Assembly (NCBI GenBank): GCA_024137785.1
Contig: JAHRHZ010000004.1
Location: 11,418,393-11,482,392 of the forward strand
Origin: Ginglymostoma cirratum
Lineage: Eukaryota
Direction of reading: 5' to 3'
Length of the DNA: 64,000 nt
A program made the translations under genes and the position numbers. Numbering within the stretch: position 1 is the first letter of the stretch; each line of letters begins with the position of its first letter. The notes below the pieces were generated by a model. The model made no database searches and was not told where the DNA came from. It saw only the letters and a program-made list of their open reading frames with translations. Below are positions 1 to 53,582 of this stretch, one piece after another.

Positions 1-147
1 TCCCCTCCCCCATTTCTGATGAAGGGTTTAGGCCCGAAACGTCAAGTTTTCCTGCTCCTATGATGCTGCTTGACCTGCTGTGTTCATCCAGCCCCATGCT
101 TGTTATCTCGGATTCTCCAGCATCTGCAGTACCTTTTATCTCTGATA
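1..147 (+). mobile_element. Penelope-like element terminus (pLTR-type), family 1, young copy; probably extends left of the window
   Basis: Positions 11-147 match 16003-16140 except CCCCATGCTTG vs CCCCACACCTTG; contains a hammerhead motif, a known feature of Penelope-like pLTRs. Confidence 0.75.
12..47 (+). ncRNA. Minimal type I hammerhead ribozyme motif
   Basis: AUUU-CUGAUGA(16-22)-A-GGG[UUUAGG]CCC-GAAAC(36-40)-GUC(41-43)-AAGU. Both core boxes intact; stem I AUUU/AAGU (one G-U); stem III reduced to self-complementary ACGU. Confidence 0.7.
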
Positions 148-8090: not shown

Positions 8091-9381
8091 CCATGACAAG
8101 GTGCCCTTCTAATGGATAGTATCATGTCATTGATTATAACTGAATAATTTCTCCCTGACTGCAAACTAAATATATTTTACAAGCAGCAGTTATCTGATGA
8201 ACTTTCATGGGGAAGATATTCTGCTGGATCTGCTGAGTTATGAACTTAGATGACCTGTTCTTTTGATCCTTACAAGGTATGAAGGTCAGGGCAAGGTTAT
8301 CTTGTACATATGGTGAAGGTGTCATCTCGTGAATCGGTACATCTAGTGAACCAGTCGGACAATGGACAGCCGAAATTTCAGCAGAGGTAGCCTCCCTCTA
8401 CCTACCCTCCCCCCTTTCCTAAAAATAATTTTGAAAGCTCTTTGTGGATCTGGCACAAATGATGGAGCCGAATCCCCAAGTGAATCCATTTTGGATTGAA
8501 ATAAAACCAATGTGGGCTTCTGCCCTTTCCTCCTCACATTGTCACAGTCAGATTGCAGGGTGAGTGTGACTGAAATGATATCATACCCCAAACTATACAA
8601 TAAACTGGTGAAAATATGAACGAACATATTCAGGTCTCCACAAAATTAACAGTCCTTCTGCCAGGCTACAGGGCAGGATGTTGGTCATAAAGTGAGACTG
8701 AAAATAGACAATTGTGGGCCTGGAAATTTTCTGACACAGGCCAACATGCAAATTTCCATCCTAATTCTAAATCCTAATCCTAATTTTACAGGAGGTTATC
8801 CTGCGTGCAAAAAGGACTGCCTTGTAAAAGCAGTATCCAGTCAATAGAATAGATTAAATGATTTATTAGTGCCCTTTCCCATATCAAATGGACTTTACCA
8901 GTCAGAAAGCAAGCCCTCTAAAGGGAGTGGAAACATGACCAGAAGGGGTGGCCTCCAGCTGGGTGACCAGGGGGGGAAAATTTCCATGAGGGCCATCAGG
9001 CACTTGTGGCTATGTGTAGTTTTTTGAGAAACATTGAAAATGCTGGGAGAATACCTCCATCTTGATGCACCCTCTCTCACTGTTACCTGCACTAAAAGGT
9101 TTCCACTCCACAGGAATTGAAGAGCTTTCTAATAAGCTCTTCATTGTTGGACTTTGCTGTTGTCCTTAAGTAAATCCTCTAATTGTCCTTTCCTTGAGAA
9201 ATTGAGTCTGATGATCAGTCATCACGCAGTGCAGAGTCCAGACCTAGGTTGAGAAGCAGGAAAATCTTCCCTAGTAATGGAGTAATTTCACCATTTTAAT
9301 TGATGTTGGACTGAAATAATTACAACTAGTTCTGACCATATCAATTCATGACAGATTTCCTGATCAATAGCATTTGGGAAG

Positions 9382-9559
9382 TCTCAGCAGGTTTAGCAAC
9401 AGTTGCGGGGAGAAAACAGAGTTAATGTTTTGGGTCTAGTGAACCTTCTTCTGAACTGTTTTTGAAACATTGACTCTGCTTGTTTCCCATAGATGCTGCC
9501 AGACCTGCTGAGTTTCTCCAGTAGTTTCATTTTCTGTTTCAGACTTTTTAGTTTTGTTT
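9382..9559. mobile_element. Fold-back Penelope-like terminus, family 2, with 14-bp TSD
   Basis: Inverted arms CTCAGCAGGTTTAGCA.../...TGCCAGACCTGCTGAG; exact flanking direct repeat TAGCATTTGGGAAG at 9368-9381 and 9560-9573. Confidence 0.75.
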
Positions 9560-10269
9560 TAGCATTTGGGAAGGGTGTCGTTCAATGGACAGATTAATGT
9601 TTGTTAAATCTCGAAGATCCACTTCAACGTCAAATTTTGTGAAAAGGAATAAAACTTGAAACTTGTGTTGGTTGATAGAATTGTTTATGATTGGTAAGGT
9701 AAGGAGGAGGGGTGTGGTAAGGTGATGTGTACAAGAGTTAGATTTCATTCCCCTTCCCTGAAATGGATTTGGTGGCAATTAATGCCACAATGGATATTAA
9801 ACAGCTATGGCTGAGGGATTGTCATGTGGGAAACTGACACAGGAAATCCTATCAGACCTGTTTGCAGTCTTCAATGCAAGGTCCTTTTGTTTTCAAGCTT
9901 GATAGAAGAATCCAATATTGGGAAGTGGGTGTCCACTGAGAACTATATCCTTATGTACCTAGCGATCCCTTTACCTCCATTCCCCAAAAGTTCTCCACAC
10001 TCCATAGTGTGACTTACCTGTAAGGTAGGAAGATTTCCTTTGCCCCATTAAGTGCTTGACAAGTATCTAAGTTAGTGAACCTTCGCTAAAGCAAGTGACT
10101 TAGGCCCCTCAGCAGCTTTCTGGCCGCTAGGCGACATCACTGCCACCTACATCAAATTCCATGCCATGTTATCAAAGTGGATCTCTTCGCCACTGGATAA
10201 GTGATAATGCCTTGACTAGCCTTCAATTTTCTGCATATATTTAAGTATACTTTTTGGAATAATCACTTT

Positions 10270-14479: not shown

Positions 14480-14850
14480 AATTCCAGAGGAAGAGTAACT
14501 GCCCTTGATATTGAGGTACCGTTTCACTGTGCAATCATAACAAATTGGAACAAAAATAAGAATCAGGGTGAAAATCTCCACTAACTGGAGTCAAGAAAAG
14601 AAGGATCACTGGACCTGAAACTTTAATTCTGTTTTCACTCCTCAGATGCTGCCAGACCTGCTGAGTTTCTCCAGCAATTTCTGTTGTTGTTTCTGATATA
14701 TAGCATCGGCAGTTCTTAGGTGTTTCTCTAAAGGAAGATGGTTGTGGTTGTTGGAAGCCAATTAACTCATCACCAGGATTTTGCTGTAAGAATTCCTCAG
14801 GGCACTTTTCCAGATCCAACCATCTTCAACTACTTCATCAGTGACCTTCA
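14480..14850 (+). mobile_element. CR1-like RT fragment, interrupted at about 14598-14729
   Basis: ACTGCCCTTGATATT ('ALDI') and GAATTCCTCAGGGC...CCAACCATCTTCAACTACTTCATCAGTGACCTT ('IPQG..PTIFNYFISDL'); homologous to 26843-27325. Confidence 0.65.
14598..14729 (+). mobile_element. Penelope-like terminus, family 2, single arm
   Basis: AAGGATCACTGGACCTGAAAC...AGATGCTGCCAGACCTGCTGAGTTTCTCCAGCAATTTCTG matches family-2 arms. Confidence 0.7.
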
Positions 14851-15184
14851 GCTTAGATTTCTAGCACCGAGAGACACACAAAGCTGGCACAGACTTACAT
14901 ATGTCTGTTTTCTGTAGCTTGTTATTATTGGAACAGGTCACTGTTCCGAACCCAGAGGCAATAGCTTGAGGAGTGGCACACTGCATCAAGCATGGATGAC
15001 TAGGAGTCTCGCTCTCTCTTACCATCTATGAAAGGAATACTGGAAGGATTTGTAATTTGAGCCTATGAGAAACTTTTCATGAGCTAAGGTGTCTTCAGAA
15101 CACACAGAGTTAACACACATGTCAAAAAACATTGACTCACAACCCGGTCTGATGCAACTTATATCCATCCTTCAATCCCTTCCT

Positions 15185-15560
15185 TATGATACTGATTAAG
15201 GCAAAGGGGATGAATAGATCGAGCAATCATTCCTATGGCAACCTACGGGACACATTCCTTTTGGAGACGCGCCCACTCAGGCTAATTACATTCTTAACTT
15301 GCCTAAGAAACAGCATGCTAATTAGATGCTTTACCAGCTTCATTACATTAGCTTCACTGGTTAGATGATTTTACGTTTGTAATTAATTCAGAAAACACCA
15401 CAGATTGAGGGCAGCTCATTAAATTTCATTTAAATATGTGTTTTGCTCTCTTCTTTTTACCTCCAAATTTGAGTCGGTTGTTGCAAAAGTGAATGTGTAA
15501 AGCCACCTGTCATGTTGCAAACAGATCTAATAGAGCTGGCACACTATTTATTGACATCTA
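15185..15560. promoter_or_regulatory. Candidate enhancer / CNE
   Basis: Repeat-free; RFX X-box-like ATTCCTATGGCAAC 15229-15242, CTAATTAG palindrome 15318-15325, GTAATTAATT 15379-15388; CpGs retained. Confidence 0.35.
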
Positions 15561-15966
15561 TTCTAGTTTCTTACCAATTCTCTCTCCCCTGTATTTGATT
15601 GGACTGGACATTCTGGGATGAACTTCTTAGCATTTTCCCCAGAACAAGTGCCATGATTCAATGAGATGTCCGTTGTTTTGTTTCTTTCATTATGCAATGT
15701 GGGTTGGACAATGGCCTTCTCTATGAACATCTCCATGTCATGTTCTTTCAATGATATACACTGTCCGAGTTGTCAAATTCCACGACACCTTTGGAAGCAT
15801 GTGCTTTGATTTCTAAAGTTTTCTCCCCGACAACTTACCCAAAGCTGCTGACTTACCCTTGTGTACATTATTGTCATTTTGACAAACCTCCACATTTATG
15901 ATTGAGATAACAAGCATGGGGCTGGATGAACACAGCAGGTCAAGCAGCATCATAGGAGCAGGAAAA

Positions 15967-16000
15967 CTTGACGTTTCGGGCCTAAACCCTTCATCAGAAA
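15967..16000 (-). ncRNA. Minimal hammerhead ribozyme motif (minus strand)
   Basis: Reverse complement reads UUU-CUGAUGA-AGGGUUUAGGCCC-GAAAC-GUC-AAG. Confidence 0.65.
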
Positions 16001-16003
16001 ATC

Positions 16004-16039
16004 ATTTCTGATGAAGGGTTTAGGCCCGAAACGTCAAGT
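16004..16039 (+). ncRNA. Minimal hammerhead ribozyme motif (plus strand)
   Basis: CUGAUGA 16008-16014, GAAAC 16028-16032, GUC 16033-16035; identical to 12-47. Confidence 0.7.
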
Positions 16040-16154
16040 TTTCCTGCTCCTATGATGCTGCTTGACCTGCTGTGTTCATCCAGCCCCACACCTTGTTATC
16101 TCGGATTCTCCAGCATCTGCAGTACCTTTTATCTCTGATACATTTATGATTGAG

Positions 16155-17340
16155 CTGGTGCCTGGCGATTCTACAATGACAATGTCATTGACTATCAGGG
16201 TGGGATAATCAGGCTTTTTACTGCAGATGATTATTGCCCAGCACTTGAGTTGCCCCTTGACATGTATCAGCTATAGATTTAATGTTGTCCACATATTGTT
16301 TTATGTGAGCTTGCTTTATTACCTGAGGAGTTCCAAATGGAACCGAACAATCATTAGTGAGCATCTCCACTTCTGATCTTATGATGGAGGGAAGGCCATT
16401 GATTAAAGGAGCTCTTGTGATAATGACTAATATCCTATCTCTGCTCCAGAGGGTTGGGGTTCAAGTCCCACTCTCGGACTTGAAGCTGTACTCATAACAC
16501 AACCTAACAGGTTAATTGTCAACATACAGATCCTTTCAATGTGTCACCTTTGGCAGATGGTATGTGAGGAAGAAACAGTGTTTTGCCATGCTTGATACAG
16601 AGTAGCACTCCTCGAGGTGCAGCGTCTGGGTTATATCGCCATGGAATCATACAGCACAGAAGAGGCCCTTCAGCCCACTGAGTCTACACTAATCACACTT
16701 TCCAGTACTTGGCCCATAGCCTTGAATGTTATGACAGTTCAAGTGCTCATCCAGAGACTTTTTAAAGGTTGTGAGGTTTTCTGCCTCTATTACTCCCCCA
16801 GGTACGGCATTCCAGACCAACCTGTGCCAATGAAAACAAGCTACAGAAAAAGATAAATGTAGGTGCATTGTCATCCTAGTACGTCTTTAGATATTAGAAG
16901 TCTTCTAAGTCTAAGGTCCTCAATGAAGTAGTTAAAGACGGTTGGAACTGGAACTCTGCCCTGAGGAATTCCTGCGGCAATATCCTGGTGATGAAACGAT
17001 TAGCCTCCAAAAACCATAACCACCTCCTCTTATACTTTGACTCCAGCCACTGGAGATTTTCACACTATTCTTACGGATTTCAATTTAAGGTTTCGCTCTC
17101 AATCAAATGTTATCTCGATATCAAGTGCAGTCACTCTCGCCTCAGGAATTCAGTTCTTTGTGACCAAGGTTGCAATGAAGTGTGAATCTGAGATGTCCTG
17201 GCTGCAAGCAAACTGAGCTTAGATGATCGGATTATCATTGAGTTAACCTCCCATTCAGCTATCCCAGTCAGGTTTGTTGGAATCAGCAAGTGTGGCTGCC
17301 TTGCCATCACTTTGCTGATGGGGTAGTAGTTGGTTGCATC
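16155..17340 (-). mobile_element. CR1-like RT remnant split by a short SINE (about 16415-16620) and a CR1 3' end (16640-16820)
   Basis: CATCTCCACTTCTGATCTTATGATGGAGGGAAGG and CCCTGAGGAATTCCTGC are antisense to the RT region seen at 26930-27050. Confidence 0.6.
16640..16820 (-). mobile_element. CR1 LINE 3' end
   Basis: ORF 16689-16874 contains VWNAVPGGVIEAENLTTFKKSLDEHLN..IQGYGPSTGKCD, a CR1 C-terminus. Confidence 0.8.
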
Positions 17341-20428: not shown

Positions 20429-22814
20429 AGAGGTGTTGGTACCTTAACTGGCAGGAACCCCAGACTGAAGTCATGGAATGGGGGCTTGGCAGCAATGCCT
20501 AGGTGGCCCTGCCAACCTATGTTCTATCTTTTGAACATGAGACCCACCACCACATCTTACCCATGAGACTGTTAGCAACCAAATAAAGTTTGCTTTTTAC
20601 AGTTTCTGGGTGATTACTGCCCTATCCATCACTGGATGAAACCCAGCACTGATGGGATAAGACCCTTAAAGGGTCACTAAATACTGAGTCTGCTTTACAA
20701 AGTTCACCTTCCACTGGTGGTGAGCCCAAGTGAGGCCCTCAATGGGCAGTAAAGCCATGTCTCAATTGCAACAAAGCAGAATGGCTGTTCATGCGTCGTC
20801 TTCTTAATCAAGGTGGATGAAAGAAAATACAAAGTCCCCAGTCAGCACCTTCTGCTTGATTAAATTCTAGCCTCTTACCTTGAATCATCCTTCAGGACAG
20901 TGATTTAAATTCCACTCATTAACTCTGTTTCTCTTGTCACAAAGGATGACAGATATGCTGAATATTTCCAGCACATTTTTGTTTCTATTTCAGACTCTTC
21001 TTGTGAAGTGGGGTAAGAACAGGCTCAAACTCAGCTCTGATGCTCCCCTAGAACAGAATTAATTTAGGAATAAATGGGCAAAGTAACGATTTGGATCATG
21101 CACAGGAAGTAGGTTGGCCCAATGGAATTGTGCTTCAGTAACGTTCAGCCTCTTCAGGATTGGGAGGTGGTGGTAAGGATGGAAGGGGCCCACTAGGAAA
21201 TAAAAATTGCACGTATTTAAAGGAAGCACACCACTAGAAGAAGATGAGAAGTGGAGGGGGATGTTTCACTCTCACACCTGAGTAGAAAGTAATTCTGCCC
21301 TTCAGGTCAAGTTTGGGGCATTTAATCAGATAGGAACATGCAAAGTGTAAATGTCATCTCTTTCCCATGGCTTGTAGACTCATCTCTCAATTCCAATTAA
21401 GCTCCTTATGTGGAAACACTGAAGGTTGTCAACCCACCACCAATAGTGTTCAGGGAGTGGAAGGGCTCTTATGTAGCAGTGCTGGTGTTCCCTATCTCTG
21501 AGCCAGGAGACTTTGGTTCAAGTCCCACCTTCTCCAGAAGTGCGCATCACCTCCGAATAGCTTGATTATGAAATTAACCAGTGATAGACAGGACAATGGC
21601 CTTGTAAAAACATTTTACAACCAAATGGGGGCTCCCAGGTCAAGGGTGTCCCTTATTGAAAGAAACTCCCTGTTTGGCCAAGGGACCTAGCGTGGGAAAT
21701 AAGATTCAGCTGAGAGCTACGCTCTTGCCTCGTTGCCAATGCCTCCTCTCTGCCCTGTACTGCAACTTCCATTTGGCATTACAATTCCACTCTCAATCAC
21801 CCATTGCCTCATTGATCCTAGGCCTTAGTGTGTGCATCACTGGTAGCTGCCAACACTTCACCGGGTTCACATTGTGCGCAAGACACAGCTCTCCATCTCT
21901 GCCTGGCAGCTCTAGGGATGATTGAAGCAGCAACATTTCCAATCCCCATGGTCCTTGCTCAGCAATGGCTAACTGCTGGTCACCTAAGTGTATGAGGGTG
22001 CCTAATTTGGTGAGGCTTCTTTGAAGGAAATGATGCGGGGCACAAGAAACCTCCCTCTCTACACACTCCCCACACTACACATCATCTGCATGAAATGCCA
22101 ACTCTGCTCTCTGTCTCTAAGAAACATTAGTGTAACAATACAACTCACCAACAGCCTCCACTAGTAGCTTTTAAATATTTATCAGTCTGGAGGGAGTGGT
22201 GTTCTCATGGCCTGGGAAACATTCCCAGTCTCTGATGCATTCTTTCAGACCAGAGAAGTATTTTATGTGCACACATTTAATAAAACATGCTTTGCCAAAA
22301 ATCACATGGAAGAAGAGCCAACTCTCCCCTGATGTGATGCTATGTACTCGTTGACAAAATCAATTTGCTGGATACTTTATACTGGATGAGATTGCTATAC
22401 AGGAAAAATGTGTGATATAGAGCCAAGCATTGCTATTCTCTTGGGCAAAAATATTTTGACAAAGCTGTTTTTTGGCATTTCAGGCAGATGCCCAGTGTAA
22501 GGATAATGAAACAGGTCATTACTTCCTTCGTAACTTGATACCGTCACAATGTTCTTCTTCCCCAGCCAACTACCCCCAAACATTAAAAAAAGGTCCTTTT
22601 CCATTAAGGTTATGTTTCTTCAGTTTCTTGAAAACTCAATTCCCTTTGAAATCTTCTTATTTGTTCTCCTTCTACAATCCAGGTTCAAAGTGTACCAAAG
22701 CTGGACATTCACAGCAACATTACAAAGGTGTTACATCATGTCATCTGGATCTGAAGAGAAAGGGCTTACATAGATACTACTAACCACCATTTAGGAATGT
22801 GAAAATACATTAAC

Positions 22815-25282: not shown

Positions 25283-25505
25283 GAGAAAAACTGAAAGAAC
25301 TGCGGGTGCTGTGAATCAGAAACAAAAATCGAAGTTGCTGGTAAGGCTCAGCAGGTCTAGCAGCATCTGTTGCGAGAAATCAAAGTGAATGTTTCAGGTT
25401 GTGTGACCCTTCCTCAGAATGGGGTTCTGAAACATTAACTCAGATTTCTTTCTACAGATGCAGCCAGACCTGCTGAGCTTTTCCTGCAATTTCTGTTTTT
25501 GTTTG
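25283..25505. mobile_element. Fold-back Penelope-like terminus, family 2
   Basis: Inverted arms GCTCAGCAGGTCTAGCAGCATCTGT / ACAGATGCAGCCAGACCTGCTGAGC; the right arm lacks hammerhead stem II. Confidence 0.75.
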
Positions 25506-35790: not shown

Positions 35791-36394
35791 ATAGCGAGCT
35801 CTTCTCGATACAATGAGTAGTAAAACTGGGTTAGCATTTCATGTGAGTTTACCATTGGGACAGGGTAGGTAGTTACTGAGACAAGTTTGGGATGATAGCT
35901 CGGGAAAAGTCTCTAGGCTTTAAGGAGAGAAAATCTCCACAGAACACAATGAAATTGACACTTGGCTATAAACACATAGGACTCAGCCCTGGCTCTGTGT
36001 GTTTTTGCAGAATTAATCAACCTGCATGAGTTAGCATGGTCCCCCAGGATGATGTTGCATTATAATTACTGTCAGATCCCAAAATGACTTGTAAGCATCC
36101 TTGTTGCAGACTAACAACCCGACAGCGTTTATTTTGTCTCCTTATAACTGCAGTCTATTAAGGATGACAGAAAACAATGCTCAGTTGGAATATGTAATTA
36201 ATTGAAGATCACGCCTTAATTGTTCAGAGATAAGAAAGACATGAGGAGGGTTCTGGGTAGTGTGATAGCAGGTTTGTTATCATGAGTCATTCGTTGGATG
36301 GAAGCACAGCCATGGACCTAAAGCATTGATTTTAAGGCTTGGTAAAAATTTCTAAGCTTCATTCATTATTAAAATTAAAGTACCATTAATGTGT

Positions 36395-36490
36395 GATAAC
36401 AAGGCGTGGGGCTGGATGAACACAGCAGGCCAAGCAGCATCACAGGAGCAGGAAAACTTGACGTTTCGGGCCTAAACCCTTCATCAGAAT
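36395..36490 (-). mobile_element. About 95-bp family-1 Penelope-like fragment with intact hammerhead core and 14-bp TSD
   Basis: Minus strand AUU-CUGAUGA-AGGGUUUAGGCCC-GAAAC-GUC; exact repeat TACCATTAATGTGT at 36381-36394 and 36494-36507. Confidence 0.8.
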
Positions 36491-37974
36491 TATTACCATT
36501 AATGTGTTCTTTCTTTTTTCTACAGTGTTCAGTTTACCTCTCTCCTTCCCTCATTCCTCTATTTCTTCTTTCTTCCCAGACCACTTGCCTGTGAAATATG
36601 CAGGTTTCCTCTCTCTCTCTCCCTCTCTGCCAAACAAAATCCTCTGACGAACGAGGAGGAGGAGGTATCCTGTATTCAAGGCAGTAGTGGAAATCCTCTA
36701 TAATTGATCATTGAGAGCTTAATCCAGACCAAAATGGCTTTAATAAAGGCCTTTTTGTGTTGCTGTGAATTCCATTAGAGACACCTCAATAGAATCCTCT
36801 ACCTTTCTCTCCAGCAAAAGAAGTCAAGAAAAATATTTGTGAACTTGCAGCCTGGTCAAGGTTATGTCTAAATACCAGAATAGCAGGTCTGTGCTCCAAT
36901 TGTGACTCACTGTTTGAGGAGGCATTACAGGAGAGGTGGCAAAAATATAGGACAAGGACTGTATTTGGTTTAATTTTGAATCTTCTTTTCACCCTGGTTA
37001 AATTATTCAAACCCCATACTTACTAACAAGCATGGAGAATTATCAGATGGGTGAGATACTGAAAAACAAAATGATCACGGATTTCAAAACAAGCTGGCAC
37101 TTTCAAGAGTGTACACAAGTGTGGTAGTGAGGAGTGGGAGTGAAGATTTAACATTTTCATAAATCATATAAAAATTGTACAATCATCCAGAGACATTGAC
37201 TATTTTTGAGCTGAGTAAAATATGTATGGAATACATAGATAACACAGCTCTGGCTCCTCTGGCTGATACTTAACAGCCTATTAAAAATTATTCTATAAAT
37301 GCACTCCCTTCCACAAAGAATTTATTAGGCTGTAACTTTAGCCAAGAATCACATGAGATAGGAAGTTGAGCCTGTCTTATGAATATCCTTTTAAATCCGA
37401 GGAAGATCTACTAAAAAATAAACTGTCCCATTAAATGAAAAGCTCTTCCATTTGTTTTAAGGATCATTTCTTGCTGATTGTGATAAAATTCCTAACGTTT
37501 CTAGATTTGTTTTTGTTTGAAAATTGATATTACCTATTTACTACTTTTTTCCTACAAATCTACCTCCCTCCGCTTGAGAAGTTGACCAGGATGTGGTTCC
37601 CCCAACACTCTGTCAACCATGTTTGCTTTTCAGGTGAATATAGACAGTTTAATCTGGTAGGCGACATCTTAGCCAAGCTCTGTGCTGTCCTTGGTCAACA
37701 TCTGTCAATCTACATACAGCATTCATCAATATAACATATAAGCACACACATTCAATCAGACAAGCACTTAGCTCCTTTGTCATGGAGGGAGGTGGTTATG
37801 AGGACCCCTTAAGAAATAAGCAAGACCTTAGATTTTAATCCATGGCACTGCATTAGAATATGACAGCACACCAAGAGAAAACATACTGGCTAAATCTAAT
37901 TAAAGAACAATTTTGGATTGATGCCAGGAAGAACTTCTTACAAACGGTGGCCAAAACCTGGAAACGTCTAAAAC

Positions 37975-51068: not shown

Positions 51069-51660
51069 AGAGTCATAGAGATATACAGCATGGAAACAGA
51101 CCCCTCGGTCCAACTCGTCCATGCTGACCAGATATCCTAAATTAATCTAGTCCCATTTGCCAGCATTTAGCTCATATCCTTCTAAACCGTTCCTATTCAT
51201 ATATTCATCCAGATGCCTTTTAAATGTTGTAATTATACCAACCTCCACCACTTCCTCCATACACACACTACCCTTTGCGTGAAAATGTTGCCCCTTATGT
51301 CCCTTTTTAAATCTTTCCCCTATCACCTTAAACCTATGCCCTCTAGTTTTGGACTCCCCCACCCTGGGGAAAAGATATTGCCTATTTACCCTATCCACGC
51401 CCCTCATGATTTTATAAACCTCTACAAGGTCACCCCTCAGCCTCCAATGCTCCAGGGAAAATAGGCCCAGTCTATTCAACATCTCCCTATAGCTCAAACA
51501 CTCCAACCCTGGCAACATCCTTGTAAGTCTTTTCTGAACACTATCAGGTTTCATAACATCCTTCCTATAGCAGGGAGACCAGAAATGAATGCAGTATTCT
51601 AATAATGGCCTAACCAATGTCCTGTACAACTGCAACATGACCTCCCAACTCCTATACTCA
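51069..51660 (-). mobile_element. Young CR1 (HER1-like) LINE, 5'-truncated
   Basis: Open 163-aa ORF 51147-51638: LYRTLVRPLLEYCIHFWSP...RLGLFSLEHWRLRGDLVEVYKIMRG...KTRGHRFKV; 3' tail at 51069-51146. Confidence 0.9.
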
Positions 51661-53582
51661 ATTAATATAATATCTCACTGCATCCTCAGGATCCAACAAC
51701 TTTTATTTGGGCGGTGCCTTTGTTGTAATTATTTCAAGGTGCTTCCCAAGAGCATTATAAAACAAATGAGGAGCAGGCCTGAGGGCTAAATAGTCTACTC
51801 TTGCCCCTAGTTTTTGTGTTTCCTACAATACGATACAGCAAATAACATAAGAAGAAATTGGACTCTTTATTTCATGCCCCACTTTGAGCATTTCAGTGGG
51901 TTGGGGAGGGATGTCAAATTGGTCGTGAGTCTTGGCTTCCATCTTTCTTCCTCCAGCTGAGCTCACCTCCATAAAGGGGTGCGGGTGGGTGTGAGGATGG
52001 TAGTGTCCAGGTACTAAAATCAACAGTCCAAACCGCTGTATGGAAATAAATGATTAAGTGTCAATTTAGCTTGTTAATACCTTAATTGACCCCAGCATCA
52101 CTCTGCCCAGACCATCACATGTTTGTTGTGGATAGTAGCAAGAGAGTGGGCGGTGCGTGCTCTTAAGTTTTTAAAATGGTAAGTGGGATGTAAGTTACAA
52201 TTTGAGGGTGCCCTTTGCCCGTGAGGGGCTGTCCCCAAGAAGAAAGCATCTTCTCCTTCCTTCCTACTCACTTTTTTACTTCAAAACCCATCTCTCTCCC
52301 TAAAGAAGGAGCAGCCTTCCCACTCCTCCACTGATAGAATGCCCTGAAGTAGACAATTGATGCCCTCTTAAGGGCCTCATTTCACTGTGGCTAGCATTAA
52401 CTCAATGGCAGGAAGGAGTTCTCACATCGTGGTGAGTTTGATAAAGAAACCCTGCCATGTTTGGTTGGAGTAACCAAGGAGGAGAAGGTCACTTTTCCTA
52501 TGGCATTCAGTGCCCCAATTAGGGGATCCAGCACTGGGAGGGTGGGCCTACTCTAGTACTCTACTGACCGCCCCCCTTCCCAAAACCCACCTTCAACCCT
52601 CACACACCTGTATTAAGATTCCTCCTTGACCTAAGATCTTGAGTGGATTTCCTACCAGGGATACCCATTGCCTGCCCCGTAGCAGTGCTGTGTTCAGAAG
52701 ACCTCCTGGCCACTGTTTGGAATGGCAGTTCTCAGTAGATGGAGCCAAGCCCCATTACCCTGGGGTCTCTGAACCTGGGAATATCTGCCCCCTGCCAACT
52801 GAGTGCCTGAGTGGCATGGGATGCAAGCATCTCAAAAACAGGCAATACAGCGGTTTCACTGGGTCTCTCGTGGTAGATGTGACCCACATCACCTTCTCAT
52901 GTAAACACATGAGCAAGGAACAACAGTAGGCCACTCAGCCTTCAAGTCTGCTCCACCAGTCAATAAGATGATCTTTTTGCCCACATTCTCGCCAATGGAC
53001 AACAATCCCCCAGTACTACACTTGCATCATTAAATATCTGCATTGTGTGCTCAAAAGTGTGACTTTCCCAACTAATGCTGCTCTAGTGTTGTTAAATATA
53101 GTGTACATGAGGCAAGGGAATGTGTACATTGCATTGACTGTCTATCTCCCTCCTGATTTCCTGTGAAAAAAAAATTCTAGGCCAGTGAGAACCAACAAAT
53201 GATCCCAAGAAGGGAATTCAGTGGCAGAGCCTCAAGCCAGACTCCCACGGGCTCACAGTTGACATAGCTGTGCTTCAAGGCTGTGTTTCAGCAACTTCAA
53301 ATATTTTTGTAACTTTGTGCTCATCAAACTAAGGTCAAATTAAAAACAAAACAATTTTCACAGCATTTGGCGTTCCTGGCTTAGGTATAAAGTAGATAGA
53401 TAGAAAATCTCATTTTCCTACCCAGAATGCATTAAACCTGACGTTGGAGGACCCCAAGAGTTGAAATGTGATGCTGTCCAATTGCCCACAACATTACGCA
53501 GTAGCCTCTCCTGTTGGAGACTATTTTGTGTGCAAACTTTGAAACTTTACTGCTCACATAATGTGAGACGAAAGGAATCCTT

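Follow-up and report, generated by a model that had tools for sequence, protein, structure and literature searches.

A 64,000-nt stretch of Ginglymostoma cirratum DNA (contig JAHRHZ010000004.1; the whole stretch is referred to below as the window) contains, at nt 15892–16154, a hairpin-shaped element with a hammerhead motif on each strand, and the locus raises the question of whether such a hairpin is copied as a unit or assembled anew at each insertion. The sequence-only reading had taken it for a palindromic, non-autonomous unit of roughly 236 bp, retrozyme- or SINE-like and mobilised by a Penelope reverse transcriptase (RT); if true, a self-copying hairpin of this type would add a new architecture to the known non-autonomous retroelements.

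A recent insertion with unequal arms

The insert between the two exact 15-bp repeats (Table 1) was 233 bp long (nt 15907–16139), and the size of 236 bp given earlier was reached only by including the last three bases of the left repeat, GAG, which also match the arm. These letters begin the left arm and represent a possible priming microhomology. The expectation for a 15-mer repeated by chance in flanks of 60 x 60 nt was about 5e-6. Four of 24 listed sequencing runs of relatives were aligned to nt 14900–17200. In related organism A, a single contig ran from nt 14922–15891 straight into nt 16140 (run X3 record 9; run X7 record 16), and the stretch missing from its contigs, 248 bp, corresponded to 233 + 15. 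The empty site was found in two of the four runs, these two coming from separate studies, whereas runs X9 and X12 had no contig bridging the site among the rows listed and were counted neither way. The flanks differed from those of organism A in 41 of 1222 letters (3.4%). Since the 15-mer is present only once at the empty site of organism A, the insertion is a true and young one, and the repeat pointed out by the sequence-only reading is confirmed as a target-site duplication (TSD). Thus, the 233-bp hairpin-shaped insertion is real and recent. CATT occurred near the start of all three TSDs of 14–15 bp found in the window, a small sample.

The inverted arms were perfect over 84 nt each (15917–16000 and 16005–16088), enclosing 4 nt, with a chance expectation of about 1e-43; past 84 nt they differed at three positions, including a 1-nt gap, and then matched again to about 97 nt. 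The 4-nt loop described earlier, composed of the two joint bases and the first two bases of the right arm, was retained, while the arms of about 97 bp were recovered only across this mismatch patch. The symmetry of the palindrome did not hold, as the right arm carried an extra tail of 37 to 40 bp, unmentioned in that reading, for which the left arm had no partner. Compared with the separate copy at nt 1–147, the tail was identical over 49 nt and the left arm had no differences in 94 nt, whereas the left arm differed from its own right arm at the three positions including the gap; the two arms are different variants of the family. The longest stop-free stretch in six frames was 50 codons, in agreement with the absence of an open reading frame (ORF) noted before. 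A different repeat flanks the element, with 129-nt inverted copies of 78% identity at nt 14729–14857 and 16904–17032, about 2 kb apart.

Table 1. Coordinates of the features at the insertion and of two related copies in the window
Feature	Position (nt)	Strand	Remarks
Left TSD copy, 15 bp	15892..15906	+	Exact direct repeat; single copy at the organism A empty site
Left arm, inverted tail-less pLTR copy	15904..16000	-	Matches the window 13–109 copy exactly for 97 nt
Minimal type I hammerhead core	15970..16000	-	3-bp stem I possible; predicted cut after 15970, minus-strand reading
Head-to-head joint	16001..16002	.	Two bases matching neither arm; compared with the copy at window 1–147
Right arm, direct pLTR copy	16003..16102	+	Begins 5 nt before the hammerhead core
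Minimal type I hammerhead	16004..16039	+	Predicted cut between 16035 and 16036; features as in the available text of PMC4209133
Tail, 37 bp (40 if counted from 16100)	16103..16139	+	Right side only; same sequence as the tail of the window 99–147 copy
Right TSD copy, 15 bp	16140..16154	+	Exact direct repeat
Separate young tailed copy	1..147	+	Preceded by native pyrimidine-rich sequence; truncated at the window edge
Separate young solo tail-less arm	36395..36489	-	Between 14-bp direct repeats 36381–36394 and 36494–36507

Hammerhead motif and predicted folding

Motif matches at nt 16008–16032 on the plus strand and 15973–15997 on the minus strand bore out the proposal of a hammerhead motif on each strand. 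The plus-strand motif consisted of a 4-bp stem I, CUGAUGA, an extra A, a 4-bp stem II with a 4-nt loop, GAA and the palindromic ACGU, with C17 of GUC at nt 16035, precisely where it had been placed before; stem I on the minus strand was 3 bp. By the criteria listed in PMC4209133, as far as its available text goes, the motif has the core nucleotides of hammerheads of Penelope-like elements (PLEs), the extra base at 9/10.1, the G10.1–C11.1 pair and the palindromic 15.2–16.2, so that its earlier assignment as a minimal type I hammerhead with an ACGU stem III agrees with that list. The available text of that report likewise gives metazoan PLE hammerheads a CUGANGA core, a loopless palindromic ACGU and a 4-bp helix I, as found here; it makes no mention of cartilaginous fish. 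Helix II was 4 bp (5 bp in the older subfamily described below) versus 7–8 bp in Schistosoma, and the two cores lay about 10 nt apart versus 100–700 bp in the dual minimal hammerheads on opposite strands already described there (Cervera and de la Pena 2014, PMC4209133).

A loose hammerhead pattern gave eight matches in the window versus 1.4 expected. Rfam hammerhead models, which the sequence-only reading had suggested as a check, gave no match at the gathering score in the whole window, and no hammerhead was among the 13 Rfam matches obtained for nt 15800–16250 up to E = 10. The miRNA and snoRNA matches, all below the gathering score, were driven by the hairpin and were rejected. Among 13 window copies, 80% of the cells in helices I and II were paired versus 18–53% in slid controls, and one helix pair changed on both sides; the observed pairing was reached by 49 of 500 shuffles and the observed covariation, which did not rise above that of the shuffles, by 68 of 500, the structure having been drawn from the same sequences.

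Because stem III is ACGU without a loop, it can be formed by a dimer only, and hammerheads with a stem III of this kind likely cleave as dimers according to the available portion of a review (PMC6765202). The two cores lie on opposite strands, so that no partnering is possible in cis. A read-through transcript entering from either flank would have its antisense arm synthesised before the other; the predicted pairing probability of stem II was 0.000 in both directions, and the predicted energies were -174 kcal/mol for the hairpin versus -3.4 kcal/mol for one dimer core. These predictions fit the earlier remark that the long hairpin would compete with ribozyme folding. Read-through transcription in either direction would meet a core, as had been proposed, but a working ribozyme in such RNA is unlikely. 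The hammerhead core is intact in sequence and probably silent at this locus. For the family of elements at large, the accessible part of PMC4209133 treats in vivo cleavage by minimal PLE hammerheads as unproven.

Pairing of GAUGCUG with CAGCAUC between arm and tail (16054–16061 with 16113–16119) was kept in both subfamilies. Predicted stem II pairing was 0.003 in the tailed arm versus 0.92 in the tail-less solo copy (36381–36507), an unclean comparison in that the copies also differ at three sites.

Class of the element and its assembly

PLE insertions typically have an inverted 5'-truncated copy next to the 5' end and a 30–40-bp tail at one end (Craig et al. 2021, PMC8557442, available text), and here the TSD, an inverted 5'-truncated copy adjoining a direct copy and a 30–40-bp tail at one end only were all present. 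As in EN+ PLE units (Penelope/Poseidon, Neptune) in the available descriptions (PMC8557442, PMC2377424), an inverted tail-less copy lies directly 5' of a direct copy, a 37–40-bp tail is found on one side only, a hammerhead lies in the repeat and the target is AT-rich; unlike those units, both copies here are only about 100–137 nt and have no ORF remnant between them. The Penelope-like origin and the retrotransposition with TSD put forward by the sequence-only reading thus gain support from the inverted copy, the one-sided tail, the PLE hammerhead of PMC4209133 (available text) and the empty site. No RT or GIY-YIG ORF was found among the 121 ORFs of at least 75 aa in the 64-kb window compared with Pfam, which gave two weak sub-threshold matches, and membership in the Penelope group therefore rests on non-coding anatomy. 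A 175-codon open stretch at nt 51147–51674 (minus strand) had no Pfam match and presumably shows similarity to the C-terminal region of CR1-type LINE proteins. Pattern scans of viral contigs and metagenome contigs gave no match, and seven matches in bacterial genomes were rejected as chance, their similarity extending no further than 32 nt.

A MITE is bounded on either side by a terminal inverted repeat and has a short fixed TSD. A DNA transposon of the MITE type, or else a microRNA-like hairpin, with an incidental hammerhead resemblance would account for a short, non-coding and very highly repeated element with long inverted arms, and for the sub-threshold miRNA matches. This origin is highly improbable: on the right the inverted repeat stops short of the insert end, the 37-bp tail lying outside the arm, the TSDs vary in length (14–15 bp) and sequence, solo arms insert alone, all Rfam matches lay far below the gathering score, and the motif shares with PLE hammerheads, as given in the available text of PMC4209133, an extra base at 9/10.1, the G10.1–C11.1 pair and the palindromic 15.2–16.2.

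The retrozyme-like or SINE-like character proposed earlier was not upheld. In animal retrozymes, the units follow one another head to tail in tandem arrays, the hammerheads lie on a single strand and circular RNA is released, according to the available text of PMC7229834 and bioRxiv 10.64898/2026.07.22.740005. The present element resembles non-LTR retrozymes (Cervera and de la Pena 2020, PMC7229834, same text) in being short, non-coding, PLE-related and furnished with a type I hammerhead; instead of head-to-tail repeats with at least two same-strand hammerheads, it has cores on opposite strands, and since the unit is head-to-head, unlike retrozymes, no monomer can be cut out. No tandem array of the unit was found in the window, where the only array was a TG microsatellite. 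As for a SINE head, the window contained no tRNA and no match to simple A/B box patterns, and Rfam gave no match there for 5S, 7SL or snRNA heads. The difference between the arm variants, a solo arm with its own 14-bp TSD and the hundreds of joints described below also speak against such a unit.

A profile built from window copies detected 16 arms at E < 1e-5, one more at 0.018 being excluded from the counts, and these split into a young and an older subfamily. Older fold-backs were located near 9.4, 25.3, 29.6, 38.0 and 59.4 kb; the loops of three of them were 29, 12 and 16 nt, and every measured loop in the window was different. In the relatives, 471 fold-back joints were found in total, hundreds of them different and some at depths tens of times the single-copy depth; a joint at the loop of the element itself was absent among the 15 of the 471 that were listed. 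Summed contig depth in the element bins was 1e5–1e6 versus 10–15 in the flanks, which is not a copy number but indicates that the family is very highly repeated in the relatives. Many of their contigs left the alignment at nt 16101/16102. Loose ends carried the upstream letters of the copy at nt 1–147 before nt 16003, the native upstream sequence being visible for about 10 nt, and the sharing of these letters indicates that the arm usually terminates a longer sequence. The sequence-only reading had named, as the pattern that would speak against it, homologues occurring only as random truncations of long elements with no recurrent fold-back structure; this was found by half only, as fold-backs recur and arm ends are clustered, which makes a short fixed RNA template plausible.

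Several individual copies showed further features. The young tailed copy at nt 1–147 appears nested in a decayed fold-back of the older subfamily (148–270); its interpretation as an assembly duplication was rejected, since the flanks differ. The older fold-back at nt 9368–9573 had a 14-bp direct repeat (9368–9381 and 9560–9573) and a shortened left arm, and that at nt 25286–25504 had the opposite orientation, with the tail on the left and the other arm lacking most of the hammerhead core. A decayed older arm (20917–20991), too degraded to score, started no more than about 4 nt from the predicted cut.

The reading preferred here, with a probability of roughly 0.7, is that of an ordinary short Penelope-type insertion, in which two short pLTR copies were joined head to head at a 15-bp staggered cut. 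A Penelope-like enzyme would prime reverse transcription from both nicks of the cut, the outer start at one nick giving the tailed right arm and the inner start at the other giving the tail-less inverted left arm, whose three initial bases coincide with the last three of the target repeat. The templates would be two distinct RNAs or would derive from two distinct pLTRs, each cDNA would run off the 5' end of an uncut RNA beginning just upstream of the hammerhead, and the two cDNA ends would be joined with two extra bases. The product was probably dead on arrival, as its read-through RNA would zip into an 84-bp duplex and block ribozyme folding. Two 3' end points about 38 nt apart were each used alone in the window, one in the tailed copy at nt 1–147 and the other in the tail-less arm at nt 36395–36489.

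A biochemical parallel is provided by the Poseidon protein PAc of the green anole. In the available text of Frangieh et al. (2024, PMC11167929), this protein, a predicted dimer with a preference for ATT, nicks both strands and extends them, and it starts reverse transcription at two internal sites bounding the tail, hammerhead cleavage being unnecessary. The present family is similar to what that text describes in having two start sites bounding the tail, about 90–130 nt downstream of the AUG inside CUGAUGA, in its ATT-containing targets and in that both strands are usable as primers; the AUG of PAc opens an ORF, whereas the frame here closes after 15 codons.

The left arm shares its gap-bearing variant with the copy at nt 1–147 and not with its partner, so that the arms look copied from different templates. 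This bears on a snap-back origin, in which the first cDNA from one RNA would run off the 5' end of that RNA, fold on itself and be copied back to the inner start, producing the inverted arm. Such a process would explain why the two arm ends at the apex lie no more than 2 nt apart and why 84 nt are perfectly complementary, but it predicts identical arms, the 1-nt-gap variant of the left arm is shared exactly with another locus, and the solo copy stops at the same place without a partner arm. Judged by these sequence variants, the different arms would argue against snap-back, although an asymmetric fold-back master or later gene conversion could also give the asymmetry; snap-back is considered improbable, slightly more so than the master itself.

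A non-autonomous fold-back master, transcribed whole and copied by a Penelope enzyme as one 233-bp unit, is also unlikely. It would be in line with the clustering of arm 5' ends, 10 of 16 lying within 1–5 nt of the core, with the recurrence of fold-backs in the window and the depth of some joints in relatives, and with the known existence of non-autonomous PLE derivatives (Li et al. 2026, bioRxiv 10.64898/2026.07.22.740005, available text). However, the measured window loops all differ and the relatives have 471 joints, the solo arm is flanked by a separate TSD, the window showed neither a tandem array of the unit nor a tRNA head or a Pol III box, the template would be a duplex of -174 kcal/mol (predicted), and the left arm begins at the inner end point with a 3-nt target match. 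Fresh assembly at each insertion is favoured over a self-copying mini-element because of the different variants in the two arms, the separate TSD of the solo arm and the wide variation among fold-back joints.

Arm end points in the window and in relatives

Ten of the 16 window arms had 5' ends 1–5 nt before CUGA, five began further 3', and one was native to the window edge. The solo arm stops at -2 without a partner arm, which indicates that pairing is not the cause of the stop. The letters at the arm 5' stops fit an initiator-like YYANWYY, a fit of about 1% by chance at a fixed site; the native upstream sequence of the older subfamily was deduced from only two copies. An initiator of this kind would make the arms run-off copies from an RNA 5' end, with stem I pairing also constraining the letters. 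Schostak et al. (2008, PMC2377424, available text) located an internal promoter in the Drosophila pLTR, at a considerable distance upstream of where the intron ends.

Junctions at the predicted cut site were collected from the best-supported 12 of 504 rows, nine of which belonged to organism A and represented six distinct junctions. In all six, within these best 12 of 504 rows, one arm ended at the first base after GUC; no native base was kept upstream in five and one base in the sixth, and the partner end varied. None of the three junctions of organism B among the same best 12 mapped to the cut site. The flanking letters were taken from the window, and microhomology leaves the exact end uncertain by as much as 3 nt; divergence between the subfamilies biases the detection of junctions to this region, and a small number of events may underlie the deep joints. 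Taken from genomic sequence, the copies of organism A that end at the predicted cut hint that the ribozyme cuts in living cells. A literature search, covering sources outside subscription journals and repeat databases, returned no report of PLE copies ending at a hammerhead cut. For PAc, the available text of PMC11167929 reports no RNA-seq ends at the position of hammerhead cleavage, in contrast to the genomic junctions of organism A that end there.

A wider interpretation, tentatively advanced and given somewhat below an even chance, is that the fold-backs constitute a genome-wide fossil record of Penelope transposition, in which each arm would be a run-off cDNA from one nick on its own RNA and the arm ends would map two RNA 5' ends, namely, in uncut RNA, the start just upstream of helix I and, in self-cleaved RNA, the hammerhead cut site. 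If true, this would be in vivo evidence of cleavage by a minimal PLE hammerhead, with the cleaved 3' product being retrotransposed, and would explain inverted pLTRs, the origin of which is given as undefined in the available text of PMC8557442, as the result of two-template priming. The element, a single young copy of a highly abundant repeat, follows the published Penelope pattern, and its value lies in the end-point evidence; a young, high-copy family with empty-site relatives makes both hammerhead cleavage and the origin of inverted pLTRs testable by arm end points and variants.

A deep head-to-tail joint, 15961 to 15919, was present in all three organism-A runs and connected a point near the inner 3' end of the arm to the first base after the cut. 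It could represent a template jump or a short tandem unit without the 5' half of the ribozyme.
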